Positions 3,086-36,259 of a DNA stretch of 64,000 nucleotides are shown here, in pieces. The notes beneath the pieces were generated by a model. It did no database searches. It saw only the letters and a program-made list of their open reading frames with translations, and was not told the origin of the DNA. Numbering within the stretch: position 1 is the first letter of the stretch; each line of letters starts with the position of its first letter. This DNA is from a virus, in IMG/VR virus record IMGVR_UViG_3300032296_003714, positions 32,001 to 96,000 of that record, one strand, 5' to 3'. The position numbers were made by a program, and so were the translations under genes.

Positions 3086-3381
3086 ATTTGAAAGTCAGGA
3101 TATGGTTTTGAAGAATTGTATCTATTAATTTTTATTTCATTTTTTCTTTCGGCGATGTCAGTTTTGTCACCAGCCGCTTGATTATATACATCTAAAAATA
3201 CTCCTGTACCTCTACCTCTAGCATCACCATCAGCAACAGCATCTCTATTCACGGCGGAATATTGATTACCGACAGCATTAAAATCATTTTTAGGTATTAA
3301 TTTAGCTCTTTCTTGGTCTGCAATTGCAGTCATTGCATTTGCAACATTTTGAGACAAATCAAGTGTAAGTTCGTTTGCCAT
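3082..3381 (-). CDS. Hypothetical protein
   Basis: 99-aa ORF with a 4-bp ATGA overlap with the WYL gene. Confidence 0.7.
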   Translation of the reverse strand: MANELTLDLSQNVANAMTAIADQERAKLIPKNDFNAVGNQYSAVNRDAVADGDARGRGTGVFLDVYNQAAGDKTDIAERKNEIKINRYNSSKPYPDFQI

Positions 3382-28229: not shown

Positions 28230-31200
28230 ATGGCAACAGTACAAACTAATCAGAAAGTGTTTGTTTCTCCAGGTGTCTATACCTCAGAAACAGATTTGTC
28301 TTTTGTGGCTCAGAGTGTGGGTGTAACTACACTTGGTTTGGTTGGTGAGACTCTTAAGGGTCCAGCATTCGAACCTATTTTCATAACAAATTACGACGAG
28401 TTCCAAGCGTTCTTCGGAGGCTCAGAACCAACAAAATTTGTGAATACACAAATACCAAAATATGAAGCTTCATATATAGCTAAATCATATTTACAACAAT
28501 CTAACCAACTTTTCGTAACAAGAGTTTTAGGTTTATCAGGATACGACGCGGGTCCTTCTTGGACTTTAAAAGTCACGGCTAATGTTGACCCTGGAACAAT
28601 CGGGCTTGACCCAGCTGTAGGAACTCCGTGGACAATCAACTTTTCTGGTGTTGCTTCTGCAGATACGGTAACTCTAATAGGTTCTCTCCCTGATGAAATT
28701 AATAACTTGTTGAATACTCAGTATAGATTAAGTGATGGAAGTACTTCATCATTCAATCAAGACTTTAGTAATACACTCGATGCTTTTGCAACAACACCTA
28801 GTACAACAGGAACAACCGCAATAGTGTACGGTTCTATACCAAGTGCAGATTATGTAAGTCTAACATCTTTTCGTTCAACATTAACAAATGTATTTGGTGT
28901 TGATTCACTAAACTTAGATAATAATGATTTGTCTAGTAGTGACAATTACTCTTGGTTATATTCTAATTTCTCTAACTATAGTGGAAATGATTATTCAGGT
29001 TTCTCATTTGACTATATAGTGACAAGTTTTACAACAGGTGCTTCATCAACATATTCAGGTACCCTATCAGGTAATGTATATACATATTCAGGAAGTGCTT
29101 ACTCACAATATAATAATTTAGTTATCGCTACATTACGTTCTAGAGGTATTTCACTATATGATAGTAATAATCATGGACCACAGTATGAAGTTTCAGGAAC
29201 AACAGATTTGGAAATGGTTTGTACTGGTTCTTATTCGGGAGTATCAAGCAATCCATATTCAACATTCTTACTTTCAGGTGTGACAAAAGATGGTGACGAT
29301 TTCTCATTTGAAACATCATTGTCAAGTGTTAGTAGTAAGTTCTTACCAAAAGTTTTAGGATATGATAACTTCGGTAAATCAAGAAATGAAGTTCCAGTTT
29401 TCGTTGAGGAGATTTATCCTGTAGCTTTAGATTACCTTTACGACAAAGGTTATATCCGTGGTTTAAGTTGTGATTTAATTGCATTACCTGCAGCTAGTAC
29501 ATATAACGCAGATTCAATAGCTTGGAATCTTGAAAAATATACGACCCCTACTTCACCTTTTATTGTTTCAGAATTGAGAGGTAATAAAGTTTACAAATTA
29601 TTCAGATTTATTTCTATATCTGATGGTACTTCTGCAAACACTGAAATAAAGGTATCAATAGCAAATATTTCTTTTGCTAACTTATCTTTTGATGTATTAG
29701 TAAGAAGTTTCTTTGACACAGACCAAAACCCTGTGGTTATCGAGAAATATACAAATTGTACTATGGACCCAGCATCTAATAGTTTCGTAGGTAAGAAAAT
29801 AGGTTCTTTTGATGGAGAATACCCATTGGTTTCAAAATATATCATGGTTGAAATGTCCAAAGAAGCTCCTATAGATGCTTTACCTTGTGGATTCTATGGA
29901 TATGACCAAAGAATTTATGATACAACATCTAACTTATCACCTGTACCAGTGTATAAAACAAAATACGATTATCCTGGTGAACCAGTGTTTAACCCTCCTT
30001 TCGGTATTACCGCTTACGGAGCTAGTGTTAACGATTCTCCTGGTGATAATGTAAGAAGAACTTATTTAGGATTTTCAACTGTAGTAGGTGTTGATGAATC
30101 TTTCTTACAATATAAAGGTAAACAAAACCCTTCAGCTGCAACATGGGGAGTAGCATATGATTCTGTACCTTGGAATTATCTTACTCAAGGTTTCCATATG
30201 GACTCAGGAGCAACTGTTGTATCAATAGGTTCAGAATACGTGACTAGCGGAACTGCAGCATTCCAATGCGGAAGTGCGGAGTTCAGAGCAGAACCTGATA
30301 CTCAAGAAAATCCATACTATTATATCTACTCAAGAAAATACACAGTATGTTTTGCGGGTGGATTTGACGGATGGGATATCTATAGAGAATATAGGACAAA
30401 CCAAGATAGATTTAGACTTGGAGCGGCAGGTTACTTAGCAGGTGCTGCACCATCAACAAGATACCCAACAGCAACTGGTCAAGGTATGTTTAAGAGAATT
30501 GTGGTAGCCAAAAATACTCAAGACTTTGCAAACACTGACTACTACGCTTACCTATTAGGTATTCTATCTTTCTCAAACCCTGAATCTACAAACATCAATG
30601 TTTTTGCAACATCAAGTATTGATTATGTAAACAATGGTAAACTTGTGGAACAGGCGGTTAACATGGTACAGTTCTCAAGAGCGGACTCTGTGTACATCGC
30701 AACAACTCCTGACTACCCAATGTATCAGCCAGATTCAACTGACCCTGAATTGATTATTCAACCTCAAGAGGCGGTAGATAACTTAGATAACACAGGTCTT
30801 GATTCAAACTATACAGCTACTTACTATCCATGGATTTTGGTTAGGGATACTGTTAACAATACACAATTATATCTTCCACCAACAGGTGAGGTTTGTAGAA
30901 ACTTGGCTCTTACAGATAACATCGCATTCCCTTGGTTCGCATCGGCGGGTTACACAAGAGGTCTTGTAAACTCTGTTAAGGCAAGAGTTAAACTAACTCA
31001 AGAAGGTAGAGATATTCTTTATCAAGGTAGAATCAACCCAATCGCAACTTTCTCTGATGTAGGAACTGTAATTTGGGGTAACAAAACTCTACAAGTTGCT
31101 GACTCAGCACTTAACAGATTGAATGTTAGAAGATTACTACTTCAGGCTCGTAAGTTGATTTCAGCGGTAGCAGTTAGATTGTTGTTCGAACAAAACGACC

Positions 31201-31424
31201 AAATCGTTAGACAACAGTTCTTGGATAGTGTTAACCCAATCCTTGATTCAATCAGAAGAGACAGAGGTCTTTATGACTTCAGAGTAACGGTTTCTTCTTC
31301 ACCTGAAGATTTGGATAGAAACACACTAACAGGTAGAATTTATCTAAAACCAACGAAAGCACTTGAATTCATTGAGATTGAGTTCTTGATTACACCAACA
31401 GGTGCTTCGTTTGAAAATATCTAA
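28230..31424 (+). CDS. Contractile tail sheath protein (gp18-like) with large insertions
   Basis: FVSPGVYTSETDLS, GPAFEP, YYPWI, PWFASAGYTRG, INPI, WGNKTLQ, RLNVRRLL, FEQND, LKPTKALEFI. Confidence 0.95.
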   Translation: MATVQTNQKVFVSPGVYTSETDLSFVAQSVGVTTLGLVGETLKGPAFEPIFITNYDEFQAFFGGSEPTKFVNTQIPKYEASYIAKSYLQQSNQLFVTRVLGLSGYDAGPSWTLKVTANVDPGTIGLDPAVGTPWTINFSGVASADTVTLIGSLPDEINNLLNTQYRLSDGSTSSFNQDFSNTLDAFATTPSTTGTTAIVYGSIPSADYVSLTSFRSTLTNVFGVDSLNLDNNDLSSSDNYSWLYSNFSNYSGNDYSGFSFDYIVTSFTTGASSTYSGTLSGNVYTYSGSAYSQYNNLVIATLRSRGISLYDSNNHGPQYEVSGTTDLEMVCTGSYSGVSSNPYSTFLLSGVTKDGDDFSFETSLSSVSSKFLPKVLGYDNFGKSRNEVPVFVEEIYPVALDYLYDKGYIRGLSCDLIALPAASTYNADSIAWNLEKYTTPTSPFIVSELRGNKVYKLFRFISISDGTSANTEIKVSIANISFANLSFDVLVRSFFDTDQNPVVIEKYTNCTMDPASNSFVGKKIGSFDGEYPLVSKYIMVEMSKEAPIDALPCGFYGYDQRIYDTTSNLSPVPVYKTKYDYPGEPVFNPPFGITAYGASVNDSPGDNVRRTYLGFSTVVGVDESFLQYKGKQNPSAATWGVAYDSVPWNYLTQGFHMDSGATVVSIGSEYVTSGTAAFQCGSAEFRAEPDTQENPYYYIYSRKYTVCFAGGFDGWDIYREYRTNQDRFRLGAAGYLAGAAPSTRYPTATGQGMFKRIVVAKNTQDFANTDYYAYLLGILSFSNPESTNINVFATSSIDYVNNGKLVEQAVNMVQFSRADSVYIATTPDYPMYQPDSTDPELIIQPQEAVDNLDNTGLDSNYTATYYPWILVRDTVNNTQLYLPPTGEVCRNLALTDNIAFPWFASAGYTRGLVNSVKARVKLTQEGRDILYQGRINPIATFSDVGTVIWGNKTLQVADSALNRLNVRRLLLQARKLISAVAVRLLFEQNDQIVRQQFLDSVNPILDSIRRDRGLYDFRVTVSSSPEDLDRNTLTGRIYLKPTKALEFIEIEFLITPTGASFENI

Positions 31425-31890: not shown

Positions 31891-32715
31891 ATGGTTTACA
31901 TTATTAAAGAAGGTTTTAAGGATGAGGCAACACCAATAATGAAATATTATGCCTTTGATTGGGATGATAATATTGTTCACATGCCGACAAAGATTATGTT
32001 GAAAACTGAAAATGGTGATGAGATTGGTATGAGTACGGACGATTTTGCAAAGTACAGACATGATATTGGAAAAAAACCTGTTCAATACAACGGTGAAAAA
32101 ATTGTTGGTTTTTCGGATAATGCGTTCAGAAATTTCAAAACTGCGGGAGACAAACAATTTATTATTGATTCAATGAAAGCTAAATTAGGTCCTGCGTTTG
32201 ATGATTTTAGAGAAGCGATAAACAACGGGTCAATTTTTGCGATAATCACGGCTAGAGGTCACAACCCTAACACACTAAAACAAGCGATTTATAATTATAT
32301 CGTTAGTGGTTTCGGCGGGATAGACAAAGATGAATTATTAAAAAACTTAAGAAAGTATAGAACTTTTGTGGATGAAGAGGATATGTCAGACAATGAATTG
32401 ATTAAAAGTTATTTGGAGTTGAACAAATATCACCCTGTAACTTTTGGTCAAGGTGGGGCTGAAAATCCTGAAGAATTAAAAGTTATGGCAATGGATGATT
32501 TTGTATCTTATATTAAAGGAATGTCCGCAGTTCTCAATAAGAAGGCGTATATAAAAAAAGATATAGGAAATAAATTTATACCATCTAAACCAACTATAGG
32601 GTTTTCAGATGATGACCCTAGAAATGTAGAAGTAATGAAAAAGCATTTTGAAGATAAACCGGATAAAATGGTAAAGACTTATTCTACTGCAACTGGAACT
32701 AAAAAAGAAGTATAA
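31891..32715 (+). CDS. HAD-superfamily phosphatase-like protein
   Basis: Motif I AFDWDDNI, motif II ITARG, a conserved K, motif IV GFSDDD. Confidence 0.65.
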   Translation: MVYIIKEGFKDEATPIMKYYAFDWDDNIVHMPTKIMLKTENGDEIGMSTDDFAKYRHDIGKKPVQYNGEKIVGFSDNAFRNFKTAGDKQFIIDSMKAKLGPAFDDFREAINNGSIFAIITARGHNPNTLKQAIYNYIVSGFGGIDKDELLKNLRKYRTFVDEEDMSDNELIKSYLELNKYHPVTFGQGGAENPEELKVMAMDDFVSYIKGMSAVLNKKAYIKKDIGNKFIPSKPTIGFSDDDPRNVEVMKKHFEDKPDKMVKTYSTATGTKKEV

Positions 32716-33331: not shown

Positions 33332-33372
33332 TTAACCCTAAAGGTAATAAACTTTTAGGGTTAATTTTTTTA
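33332..33372 (+). terminator. Terminator/attenuator hairpin between the tube and chaperone genes
   Basis: TTAACCCTAAA...TTTAGGGTTAA followed by a T-run. Confidence 0.6.
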
Positions 33373-33373
33373 T

Positions 33374-34117
33374 ATGGATGAACAATCAAGAATATATGGT
33401 CAACAAAATTTGACACTACCACACGATGTGGTTCCTTTACCATCAGAAGGTGTTTTTTATAAAAACAAGAAAAAATCATTAAAGGTCGGATATTTGACTG
33501 CCTCTGACGAAAATATACTTTTGGCTGGTGGCATGGATATTACAACAAATTTATTAAGAAACAAAATTTACGAACCTGATATTAGGGTTGATGATTTATT
33601 GGAAGGTGATGTTGAAGCAATATTAATCTTCTTGAGAAATACCGCTTTCGGTCCGGAAATGGAGTTAACATTAACAGACCCAAAAACATCCAAAAAGTTT
33701 AATGCATCTGTAATGTTAGATTCACTATCTGTAATTAAAGGGCAAGAGCCATCACCTGATGGAACTTTCACAACCACACTTCCAAAAAGTGAAAGTGTTA
33801 TTAAATTGAAACCCTTAACGTATGGTGAGATTATTGAAATTAACAGAATGGCTGAATCATACCCACAAGGTAGAGTATATCCAAAAGTCACGAATAAATT
33901 ACAAAAACAAATCGTTGAAATAAATGGTGTTTCTGATAAAATAGAAATTGCTAAATTTGTGGAACAGATGCCAATTATGGACTCAAAGTTCATTCAAAAA
34001 TTTATTAATGAAAACGAACCTAAATTGGATATGGCTAAATATGTTACAACCCCATCAGGAGAAAAACTACAAGTTAATGTAGGTTTTGGGGTAGACTTTT
34101 TTCGCCCTTTCTTCTGA
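33374..34117 (+). CDS. Tail assembly chaperone / baseplate hub assembly protein (gp26-like)
   Basis: VPLPSEG..Y, LTASDENIL, LLEGDVEAILIFLR...FG, C-terminal DFFRP; located between the tube and tape measure genes. Confidence 0.75.
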   Translation: MDEQSRIYGQQNLTLPHDVVPLPSEGVFYKNKKKSLKVGYLTASDENILLAGGMDITTNLLRNKIYEPDIRVDDLLEGDVEAILIFLRNTAFGPEMELTLTDPKTSKKFNASVMLDSLSVIKGQEPSPDGTFTTTLPKSESVIKLKPLTYGEIIEINRMAESYPQGRVYPKVTNKLQKQIVEINGVSDKIEIAKFVEQMPIMDSKFIQKFINENEPKLDMAKYVTTPSGEKLQVNVGFGVDFFRPFF

Positions 34118-34256
34118 GTATAGAAAGGGGCAAATAGATGAGTTCTATTATCTATCAACTTTATTCCATGTTAGTTGGTCTGATTTTGAAAAAATGCCTC
34201 TTTTTGTGAGAAAATATTTGTTAGATAAATGGTACGAAGTCAATAAGAAGGACTGA
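34095..34256 (+). CDS. Start-less +1 frame: predicted frameshift extension of the tail chaperone (not in the ORF track)
   Basis: 53 open codons from just after TAG (34092-94): TFFALSSEYRKGQIDEFYYLSTLFHVSWSDFEKMPLFVRKYLLDKWYEVNKKD*. Confidence 0.7.
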   Translation, partial: TFFALSSEYRKGQIDEFYYLSTLFHVSWSDFEKMPLFVRKYLLDKWYEVNKKD

Positions 34257-34272
34257 ATTTTCAGTCCTTCTT
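34245..34272 (+). terminator. Perfect 12-bp hairpin over the stop of the +1 frame
   Basis: AAGAAGGACTGA-ATTT-TCAGTCCTTCTT. Confidence 0.6.
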
Positions 34273-34297
34273 CTATTTATAATATAAATAATTTTTA

Positions 34298-36259
34298 ATG
34301 CCAGGAATCTTTGATGATATAGTAAAACTTTTTGCACCCCTCGGAGAAGTATTACCAACAGGAGCAAGAGTTGGGGAAATATTCAAAACTGTAATTGGCG
34401 GTACAGACGAGATAAATTCTAGGTTTACCCAAGGTAGACAAAGAGTAACTGAATTTAGTGCGGCAATTGGTGATAGTATTCCGATGGTAGAGCGATTGGG
34501 TGGTACTGCAAAAGATGCTGTTGGTGTCATTGATGATGTTGCAGCTGCGACAAAAAGAAATGTGGTTGCAAGTGCTGAGGAAGTGTCAAAATTATATTCT
34601 GTACAACAATTAACAGGAACAGACGCTAAAAGACTTGTTGAAACATTCCAAAATGTAGGTATTCAGTTTTCACAAATAAGTGACCATGTAGGTGAATCGA
34701 TAAAATATATACAAAGTGTTGGTGGTAATGCTAGAGATATAATGAGGGAAGTTAATGGGTATGTTGAAAAAATTAACCAATATAATTTTCAGGATGGTGT
34801 ATTAGGTCTTACTAGAATGGCAACACAAGCACAGCTATTGAAGTTTGATATGGGTAGTACTTTGGGTTTTGCTGAAAAAGTTATGGACCCCGAAGGCGCA
34901 ATTAAAATGGCATCTGCCTTTCAAAGACTTGGAGTTGCTGCTGGAGATTTAACTGACCCATTCCAATTGATGTATAAGTCATTAAATGACCCCGAAGGAT
35001 TACAAAATAGTATTGTCAACATGACAAAACAATTTACCTATTTTGATGAGAAGGCAAATGCTTTCAAAATAAATCCGCAGGGTATGTTAATGTTAAGACA
35101 AATAGGTACTGAAGCGGGAATAAGTAGTACTGAACTATCTAAGATGGCATTAAATGCTGCAGATTTAGATAAAAAAATCTCACAAATATCACCATCTTTC
35201 GATTTCGAAAACGAAGAAGACAAACAATATATTGCTAATATTGCTAAGATGGGTAAAGGTGGTGAATATGAAATAACTGTTAAAGATGAAAAAACGGGAA
35301 AAGATAAGACTATCCTTTTACAAGAAGCAACAAATGAACAATTACAAGAATTAATAGATAGGCAAAAGGAAGGTAGAGAAGACCAAACAGTAGAAGATAT
35401 ACAAAAATTACAAATAGATGCTTTGAGTGCTGTTGTTAATGAATTGAAAGCGACAAGGGATGAATATATTGCAGGTGCTGCATCATCTAGAGAACTTACA
35501 AAAGCTCTAAACGGAATGGAACTCAGACTTTCGGCTTTGAATGCAATACAAGAATTTAAAGAAAAAAAAGGGATTGATAAAACAACAACAACAACTATTA
35601 GAGATGAGGTAGATAAAAATGTACCTCTTGTCATGAAGATGATTACGGACTTTTTTACTCAGGATAAAGAAAAGATGAAAGAAGATTTAAAAGTTCTTAT
35701 TGAGCAGATAAAAGTTTTTAGTAAAGAATCTTTGAAAGAAGTTGCGGAAGGAATTAAAAAGGCTTTGGAAATTTTAAAGGATAAGGCTCAGGGTAAGGCT
35801 TCAGGTGGATATGTCTATGGTAAAGGGACACAAACCTCAGATTCAATACCTACTTTATTAAGTAATGGTGAGTTTGTTGTTAACGCAGCGTCAACAGCTG
35901 CTTTTGGACCACTATTAGAAACTATCAACGAAAACCCTAACTATGATTTGAAACCGTTTGCAAATCAAGGATTGGAGCTCAAAAACACCAACGATATTGC
36001 AGCTTCAACCATAACCAACAGAAGTATAACGGAACAAATATCCAATTTGAACACATCTACATCTAATACTGAAACAAAAACGAGTAAAATTGAATTTGGA
36101 GAAATTTCACCGCTTAAAGTGATTTTTGAAAAAGGACCAGGATTTTCAGACAGTGATATGGCAATGCTCGAATATAATCTTGGTAAGAGTAATATTACAG
36201 AACAACTAACTAAGAGCATATCGGAAAAACTAAAGGTTTTACAAGTTAAAGAGGCATAA
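34298..36259 (+). CDS. Tape measure protein
   Basis: Helical Ala/Gly/Lys-rich protein after the chaperone; ASGGYVYGKGTQTSDSIPTLLSNGEFVVNA is a typical tape-measure C-terminal motif. Confidence 0.8.
   Translation: MPGIFDDIVKLFAPLGEVLPTGARVGEIFKTVIGGTDEINSRFTQGRQRVTEFSAAIGDSIPMVERLGGTAKDAVGVIDDVAAATKRNVVASAEEVSKLYSVQQLTGTDAKRLVETFQNVGIQFSQISDHVGESIKYIQSVGGNARDIMREVNGYVEKINQYNFQDGVLGLTRMATQAQLLKFDMGSTLGFAEKVMDPEGAIKMASAFQRLGVAAGDLTDPFQLMYKSLNDPEGLQNSIVNMTKQFTYFDEKANAFKINPQGMLMLRQIGTEAGISSTELSKMALNAADLDKKISQISPSFDFENEEDKQYIANIAKMGKGGEYEITVKDEKTGKDKTILLQEATNEQLQELIDRQKEGREDQTVEDIQKLQIDALSAVVNELKATRDEYIAGAASSRELTKALNGMELRLSALNAIQEFKEKKGIDKTTTTTIRDEVDKNVPLVMKMITDFFTQDKEKMKEDLKVLIEQIKVFSKESLKEVAEGIKKALEILKDKAQGKASGGYVYGKGTQTSDSIPTLLSNGEFVVNAASTAAFGPLLETINENPNYDLKPFANQGLELKNTNDIAASTITNRSITEQISNLNTSTSNTETKTSKIEFGEISPLKVIFEKGPGFSDSDMAMLEYNLGKSNITEQLTKSISEKLKVLQVKEA

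Follow-up and report, generated by a model that had tools for sequence, protein, structure and literature searches.

How many products does the tail assembly chaperone gene of an uncultured giant phage encode, considering that a second reading frame, overlapping its 3′ end, continues well past its stop codon without any evident start of its own? A preliminary description of the DNA analyzed here (64,000 nucleotides [nt], positions 32,001 to 96,000 of IMG/VR record IMGVR_UViG_3300032296_003714, referred to below as the window) had proposed that ribosomes change frame at UUU_CGC near the end of this gene. On the evidence presented below, we consider it highly probable that a programmed +1 ribosomal frameshift at UUU_CGC yields chaperone forms of 247 and 293 amino acids (aa), for which there is no protein, reporter, or ribosome-profiling evidence.

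Gene neighborhood and frame layout

The chaperone gene lies between a tail tube gene and a tape measure-like gene (Table 1), which is the position expected of a gene recoded in the manner of lambda G/GT. The earlier placement of a chaperone upstream of a tape measure gene was borne out, as the protein matches PF12322 and phrog_150 and is followed by the tape measure-like gene. Further upstream, a tail sheath gene (28230 to 31424) encodes an unusually long protein of 1,064 aa, in which sheath-domain matches were confined to the last ∼200 residues, indicating large inserted or added domains.

The 0 frame of the chaperone gene ends in GAC TTT TTT CGC CCT TTC TTC TGA (34094 to 34117), while the +1 frame is closed by TAG at 34092 to 34094 and then open for 53 sense codons (34095 to 34253) up to TGA at 34254 to 34256. 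The sole ATG of this open stretch (34194 to 34196) encodes its residue Met-34 and lies 20 codons before the end, with neither GTG nor TTG ahead of it in the window's +1 frame, and the −1 frame is closed. This layout had been described correctly in every detail, and the computed products (247 aa from the 0 frame and 293 aa after a +1 shift) matched the sizes that had been predicted. Two terminator-like hairpins flank the open reading frame (ORF) together with its +1 extension. Of the hairpin and the next promoter that had been placed only after the +1 stop, the hairpin spans that stop; the promoter was not established, since TATAAATA (34283 to 34290), tried as a late promoter, occurred in 16 copies in the window against 10.7 expected and was not significantly enriched. 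At the window's base composition, we estimate that an open frame of 53 codons arises by chance in ∼2% of cases; it is therefore conservation that lifts the +1 frame above chance.

Table 1 Features of the chaperone locus, alternative slip sites, and tandem paralogues (positions refer to the window unless a locus or phage is named)
Feature	Position or locus	Strand	Remarks
Tail tube gene, 162 aa	32811–33299	+	phrog_4542 tail tube (E 4.5e-24); weak Pfam gp19 match; upstream neighbor
Terminator-like hairpin preceding the chaperone gene	33332–33364	+	
0-frame ORF, short form of 247 aa, T4 gp26-like hub/tail assembly chaperone	33374–34117	+	PF12322, phrog_150
Candidate upstream stem, ACCCCA (34049–34054)/TGGGGT (34087–34092)	34049–34092	+	One covarying pair; role unknown
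TAG closing the +1 frame just 5′ of the slip site	34092–34094	+	
Slip site UUU UUU CGC	34097–34105	+	P-site UUU 34100–34102; A-site CGC 34103–34105; re-pairing on UUC 34101–34103
+1-frame extension, 50 codons plus TGA, predicted C-terminal three-helix domain of the 293-aa form	34104–34256	+	pN/pS, gapless alignment, model
0-frame stop TGA	34115–34117	+	
Terminator-like hairpin across the +1 stop, 12 bp	34245–34272	+	
Tape measure-like gene, 653 aa	34298–36259	+	phrog_25241 tape measure (E 8e-18) and four other tape measure PHROGs; downstream neighbor
Slip site UUU_UGG	Mel-JY01, L166		
Slip sites CUU_UGG and CUU_UAC	L168–L191		RF2 slip codon
Slip site UUU_CGU	L192		
Slip site UUU_CUA	LR756508		
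Slip site UUU_AGU	LIS04		
Tandem gp26-like paralogues	L221–L271, e.g., L226:5087–6930, L262:5051–6951		

Conservation and coding selection in the +1 frame

Searches of IMG/VR with the 0-frame protein yielded 315 relatives and those with the +1 peptide 272; from these, 72 distinct retrieved sequences besides the window, sharing 64 to 90% aa identity, formed the comparison set. As in the window, the extension lies in the +1 frame in all 72. Per-site entropy revealed that variation follows the third positions of the 0 frame up to the slip site and those of the +1 frame from ∼15 nt past it, also across the 25 codons that precede the internal ATG, and the same switch was observed in a sister clade with a different slip site. 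The overlap TTT CGY CCT TTC TTC is invariant in these relatives but for the exchange of CGC and CGT, as would be expected if both frames are translated there.

Moreover, pooled Nei-Gojobori estimates gave a pN/pS of 0.26 for the +1 frame over the 25 codons between the 0-frame stop and the internal ATG, compared with 1.16 and 1.24 for the same DNA in the other two frames; the corresponding values were 0.19 for the +1 frame downstream of the ATG and 0.24 for the last 50 codons of the 0-frame gene. The lack of +1-frame conservation upstream of the ATG, which had been named as a possible refutation, was thus not observed, this segment being under purifying selection. Judged by these substitution patterns, the +1 frame is real coding sequence. 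The third frame of the window also holds a 23-codon hydrophobic ORF (34138 to 34209) with a good Shine-Dalgarno (SD) sequence (GGGG, 7 nt, ATG); it was rejected as a gene, being unconserved in relatives and having a pN/pS of 1.24 in its frame.

The arrangement might in principle be an artefact, either an assembly indel in the T run, homopolymer runs being error-prone in sequencing, or a merely fortuitous open frame. Against this, up to 159 loci of independent metagenomes and three GenBank phages share the layout, relatives also conserve the 0-frame tail RPFF together with its stop, and no in-frame fused form was found among close relatives in 5.8 billion proteins. The assembly indel foreseen as a refuter can be excluded on the grounds of the shared layout and the missing close fusion, and the probability that we attach to an artefact of either kind is negligible.

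Sequence of the slip site and direction of the shift

The TAG and TGA codons on either side of the site leave about 20 nt in which the +1 frame can be entered, and within this stretch only the UUU at 34100 to 34102, followed by C, permits a P-site tRNA to re-pair one base forward (on UUC). A conserved TTT TTT (C/T)GN site had been anticipated. Its core TTT_CG[CT] was invariant in the 72 distinct relatives, but the first TTT was not, as the preceding codon is TTC in 6 of them. As for the 0-frame stop, 5 distinct relatives use TAA, and in 3 the stop is displaced downstream by two codons; with both its identity and its position variable, a stop next to the site is not required. Taken together, TTC TTT CGY in six relatives and the variable stop indicate that a −2 shift, transcriptional slippage, and stop-dependent shifting are not conserved options.

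A −2 shift had been left open beside +1. In that case, tRNA-Phe would move back two bases on the U6 run and give a 294-aa product containing ...DFFFALSS..., and TTT TTT in the window and most relatives would indeed allow perfect re-pairing two bases back; moreover, the site of phage LIS04 reads UUU UUU A, where +1 re-pairing on UUA would be poor. However, in the six relatives with TTC TTT CGY the tRNA would land on UCU, yet UUU_C is kept; clades with CUU_U also fit +1, and long paralogues encoded in a single ORF match the +1 product without an extra residue. The direction +1 is thus favored, the six relatives in particular disfavoring −2, which we regard as quite unlikely. The predicted junction peptides of the window's clade are ...GVDFFALSSEYR for +1 versus ...GVDFFFALSSEYR for −2.

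RNA polymerase slippage on the T run, by which some mRNAs would lose one U or gain two, could likewise draw on the six T residues at 34097 to 34102 and on the seven in Microcystis phage Mel-JY01. Yet six T residues are fewer than in runs known to slip efficiently, the run is cut to T3 in six distinct relatives, and no T run exists in the CTT_TGG and TTC_TGG clades, the arrangement being kept in all of these. Slippage during transcription is therefore highly improbable, and a shift of the ribosome by +1 remains the preferred reading.

The site also shows both features that characterize the influenza PA-X type of site: the P-site UUU has a C after it, and the A-site codon is a rare CGN. The impression that CGC is rare and Arg mostly encoded by AGA was confirmed by counting: among 590 Arg codons in the 31 large plus-strand ORFs of the window, CGC occurred 3 times, CGT 29 times, and AGA 448 times; CGC amounts to 0.2 per 1,000 codons. 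These counts are consistent with pausing at a rare A-site codon, as for PA-X. On the other side, tRNA-Arg(ACG) is among the tRNAs encoded by a related complete 317-kb phage, and CGY may thus not be slowly read during infection. The genome of this relative (G001, the record of locus L011) contains 24 tRNA genes at 131 to 138 kb and 157.7 kb, 23 of them in one cluster, including those for Arg(ACG), Arg(UCU), Phe(GAA), and Trp(CCA). No tRNA genes were found in the window or in the 107-kb contig to which it belongs.

Fused product or separate gene

The +1 ORF could alternatively be a separate small gene with its own initiation or re-initiation, whose product is never fused to the chaperone. Most relatives do have a +1-frame ATG 23 nt 5′ of the site, the corresponding ORF of Mel-JY01 is annotated separately in GenBank with a TTG start, and Xanthomonas phage XacN1 has a small ORF that does not overlap the chaperone gene. 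But this ATG is a by-product of 0-frame Asn-Val, lacks a good SD sequence, is directly followed by TAG in the window, and is replaced by ACG in the 22 loci of the L010 group, while in four distinct relatives the +1 frame does not open until 5 nt ahead of the site. The relatives share no conserved start codon in the +1 frame, the window offers no ATG, GTG, or TTG before codon 34, the 25 codons ahead of its only ATG are under selection, and homologues carry the extension domain fused in frame. Independent initiation, which would have refuted the original proposal, was thus not supported, and we consider a separate gene improbable. The second ORF overlaps the first, has no start of its own in the window, and is conserved as coding, in agreement with what defines the G/GT type of recoding.

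The in-frame homologues emerged from a phmmer search with the +1 fusion product (P0003) against 1.84 billion representatives, which returned 1,322 matches, 150 of which were listed. Nearly all of these 150 alignments stop at query residue 243, i.e., at the slip site, and the proteins concerned end 4 to 6 residues past it; among the matches listed, five single-ORF homologues continue through the junction into the extension. They align to the +1 product with neither a gap at the junction nor an extra residue (..G.DFF-ALSSEYRK..DEFYYL in the window and ..G.EFL-SMPIEHRK..EEQFLV in the homologues). A profile of the single-ORF long forms detected 55 metagenome loci, and in 27 of the 27 loci longer than 9 kb a short paralogue without the extension lies directly upstream of the long form. 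The long form of these tandem loci comprises 317 to 370 aa (extension HMM, E 4e-5 to 1e-16), whereas the short paralogue has 275 to 321 aa and ends in ...LF[WY]P.., much as the 0-frame proteins of the frameshifting clades do; in four contigs, a tape measure homologue follows the tandem pair at ∼2 kb. A search of viral contigs with one single-ORF long form (P0091) returned nothing. The predicted pair of short and long forms is thus also made from two genes in nature. As far as comparison of sequences can establish them, the frame layout, selection in both frames, conservation of the site, and homology to single-ORF proteins are all established.

Slip sites, frames, and annotation in distant phages

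The +1 extension is kept in distant phages, including Mel-JY01, LIS04, LR756508, and loci L163 to L192, where other slip sites are used (Table 1). In L163, L165, and L167, the site (about positions 3270 to 3290) reads CTT TCT TTC TTC TGG; here homology places the junction at UUC_U, where re-pairing of the P-site tRNA is impossible, and the product length would be unchanged if the slip occurred at CUU_U, three codons upstream. The homologous extension of phage XacN1 (L217, ORF316) and of LR756511 (L219) lies in the −1 frame, indicating that not all branches of the family shift in the same direction.

In both annotated examples, the long form escaped the gene callers. In Listeria phage LIS04 (OQ999172; L161:3742–3971), a 230-nt GenBank gap without annotation is open in the +1 frame, and in Mel-JY01 (PP395634; L160:3737–3973) the extension is recorded as a separate "hypothetical protein" with a TTG start inside the chaperone gene. 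The latter is a spurious annotation, through which the long form was missed.

RNA elements around the site

Among possible RNA signals, a candidate stem upstream of the site (Table 1) was paired in 97% of cells but contains only one compensatory pair (AU to GC), and it is absent from distant clades. An SD-like AGGAG (34057 to 34061) in its loop is invariant, and synonymous positions are invariant in ACC CCN TCA GGA GA and in GGG G (34088 to 34091). The covariation gives only weak support for this stem as a functional element. Two further candidates were rejected. A downstream stimulatory hairpin (34105 to 34112 with 34122 to 34129) folds in the window, but its partners vary without compensation in relatives. 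The SD-like GGGG was considered as a stimulator of the kind used by release factor 2 (RF2), where the stimulatory SD lies ∼3 nt from the slip site; its spacing here is 8 nt. An Rfam search over 33900 to 34400 found nothing near any gathering score. Thus, no RNA element stimulating the shift has been established.

Relationship to T4 gp26 and gp51 and predicted structure

The 0-frame protein matched PF12322 (T4_baseplate) with 31.9 bits (cutoff, 24.5) and phrog_150 "baseplate hub" with an E value of 2e-14, and fold matches to "baseplate hub" proteins in BFVD reached E values down to 5e-33. Both gp26 (208 aa) and gp51 (249 aa) of T4, which are listed as hub assembly chaperones (Leiman et al. 2010, PMC3004832, Table 2), match PF12322 and phrog_150 as the window protein does. 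T4 gp26 ends in ...KEFFELL, at the EFF motif where the short form of the window ends, and its match to phrog_150 (282 positions) covers positions 14 to 235, compared with 13 to 280 for gp51, 9 to 270 for the single-ORF long form P0091, and 12 to 245 for the window's fusion product P0003. In T4, the two proteins come from separate, divergently transcribed genes, whereas the window has one gene with an extension; no +1 extension follows T4 gene 26, in which the +1 frame stops after 8 codons.

The extension had been likened to the small gene annotated separately after gp26 in T4-like phages. This likeness is upheld by the separate ORF of Mel-JY01 and by the additional C-terminal part of the profile that gp51 covers, and hhalign placed the extension on gp51 residues 197 to 245; but a profile of the extension alone had no significant match to the gp51 C terminus. 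From these profile alignments, it is likely, though not demonstrated, that gp51 is the T4 equivalent of the long form and gp26 that of the short form.

An AlphaFold model of the fusion product (pLDDT 89, pTM 0.85) predicts that the extension forms three helices (residues 247 to 291, pLDDT 83 to 88). Over residues 127 to 217, VIA-align related the protein to the HK97 chaperone (2ob9; Z 5.6, root mean square deviation 3.3, 78 residues aligned) and to YqbN (3klu; Z 5.8), both below the safe level of the tool, and Foldseek found no match in the PDB. The modeled fold link to solved tail assembly chaperones (HK97 and YqbN) is accordingly no more than suggestive.

Proposed mechanism and its implications

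We propose that most ribosomes would read the 0-frame ORF to its end and release the 247-aa gp26-like chaperone ending in ...GVDFFRPFF, while some would pause when tRNA-Phe occupies the P site on the UUU at 34100 to 34102 and the A site presents the rare codon CGC. This tRNA-Phe would then re-pair one base forward on UUC, where its G34 would gain a Watson-Crick pair, and reading in the +1 frame up to TGA at 34254 to 34256 would produce the 293-aa form, ...GVDFF-ALSSEYRKGQ...KKD, which would carry a further domain of three helices. As an analogy to lambda G/GT and T4 gp26/gp51 suggests, both forms may act together as chaperones, absent from the virion, for tape measure, tube, and hub. Slippage as such, how often it occurs, ribosomal pausing on CGC, and the function of the extension are all matters of inference. 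A requirement for both forms, regardless of the mode of encoding, is suggested only indirectly by the comparative data, namely, by the constraint on both frames in the overlap and by the phages that encode the two forms as two genes.

Other phages, T4 among them, apparently obtain the short and long forms from two separate genes. A broader hypothesis, whose chances we judge to be evenly balanced, is that T4-type phages have in the gp26/gp51 family their equivalent of the lambda tail assembly chaperone, with a necessary short/long pair encoded in three interchangeable ways: by a +1 shift (in the clade described here, with sites drifting among UUU_C, UUU_U, and CUU_U), by a −1 shift, or by two paralogous genes (in T4 and the tandem pairs). 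If so, T4 would no longer be an apparent exception to the tail-chaperone frameshift rule, and a large natural series of bacterial +1 slip sites would become available. Nothing on such a three-way encoding was found in the literature searched, nor any report of a frameshift in gp26/gp51 or baseplate-hub genes, most subscription journals being outside the scope of the search.

In bacteria and bacterial viruses, programmed +1 frameshifts are uncommon, and few are represented by hundreds of natural variants. The case described here would be a rare forward variant of the lambda G/GT frameshift within the T4 gp26/gp51 family and would connect the tails of T4-type phages with the G/GT rule that other long-tailed phages follow. 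Moreover, the role of gp26/gp51 has so far been described only as "hub assembly chaperone," and the short/long model is concrete and testable, including at the bench in two cultivable phages, Mel-JY01 and an SP-15-like Listeria phage.

Comparison with known frameshift systems

Three known systems are relevant to the proposed shift. Bacterial prfB, encoding RF2, undergoes a +1 frameshift at CUU UGA with an upstream SD. The window resembles it in the +1 slip of a P-site tRNA onto UUU/UUC, and the sister clade L168 to L191 uses CUU_U, the slip codon of RF2 itself. Unlike in prfB, however, the A-site codon of the window is the sense codon CGC, the 0-frame stop is 4 to 6 codons away and variable in position, and there is no SD 3 nt upstream, the nearest G-rich run ending 8 nt before the P-site codon. 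The site is thus not of the prfB type, whose definition combines CUU_UGA, an A-site stop codon, and an SD located 3 nt upstream.

The influenza A PA-X protein is produced by a +1 frameshift at UCC UUU CGU (PMC4317690). Both sites place UUU and then CGY in the P and A sites, tRNA-Phe can re-pair on UUC in both, and the Arg codon in the A site is one that the respective genome seldom uses. They differ in that PA-X is made by eukaryotic ribosomes and is an unrelated protein and in that the E-site codon of the window's clade is UUU or UUC, preceded by GAN rather than UCC.

A conserved frameshift in tail assembly chaperone genes, with lambda gpG/gpGT as the example, was reportedly described by Xu, Hendrix, and Duda in 2004. 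The window differs from lambda in shifting by +1 and not by −1, in lacking an X XXY YYZ heptamer, and in encoding a protein of the T4 gp26/gp51 family (PF12322) about twice the size of gpG. It shares with lambda the location of the gene between those for tube and tape measure, short and C-terminally extended products with a common N terminus, a second ORF without its own start, and a conserved slip site. The recoding of the G/GT type that had been proposed at UUU_CGC upstream of the tape measure gene is thus supported by conservation of the site, by selection, and by the lack of conserved starts.
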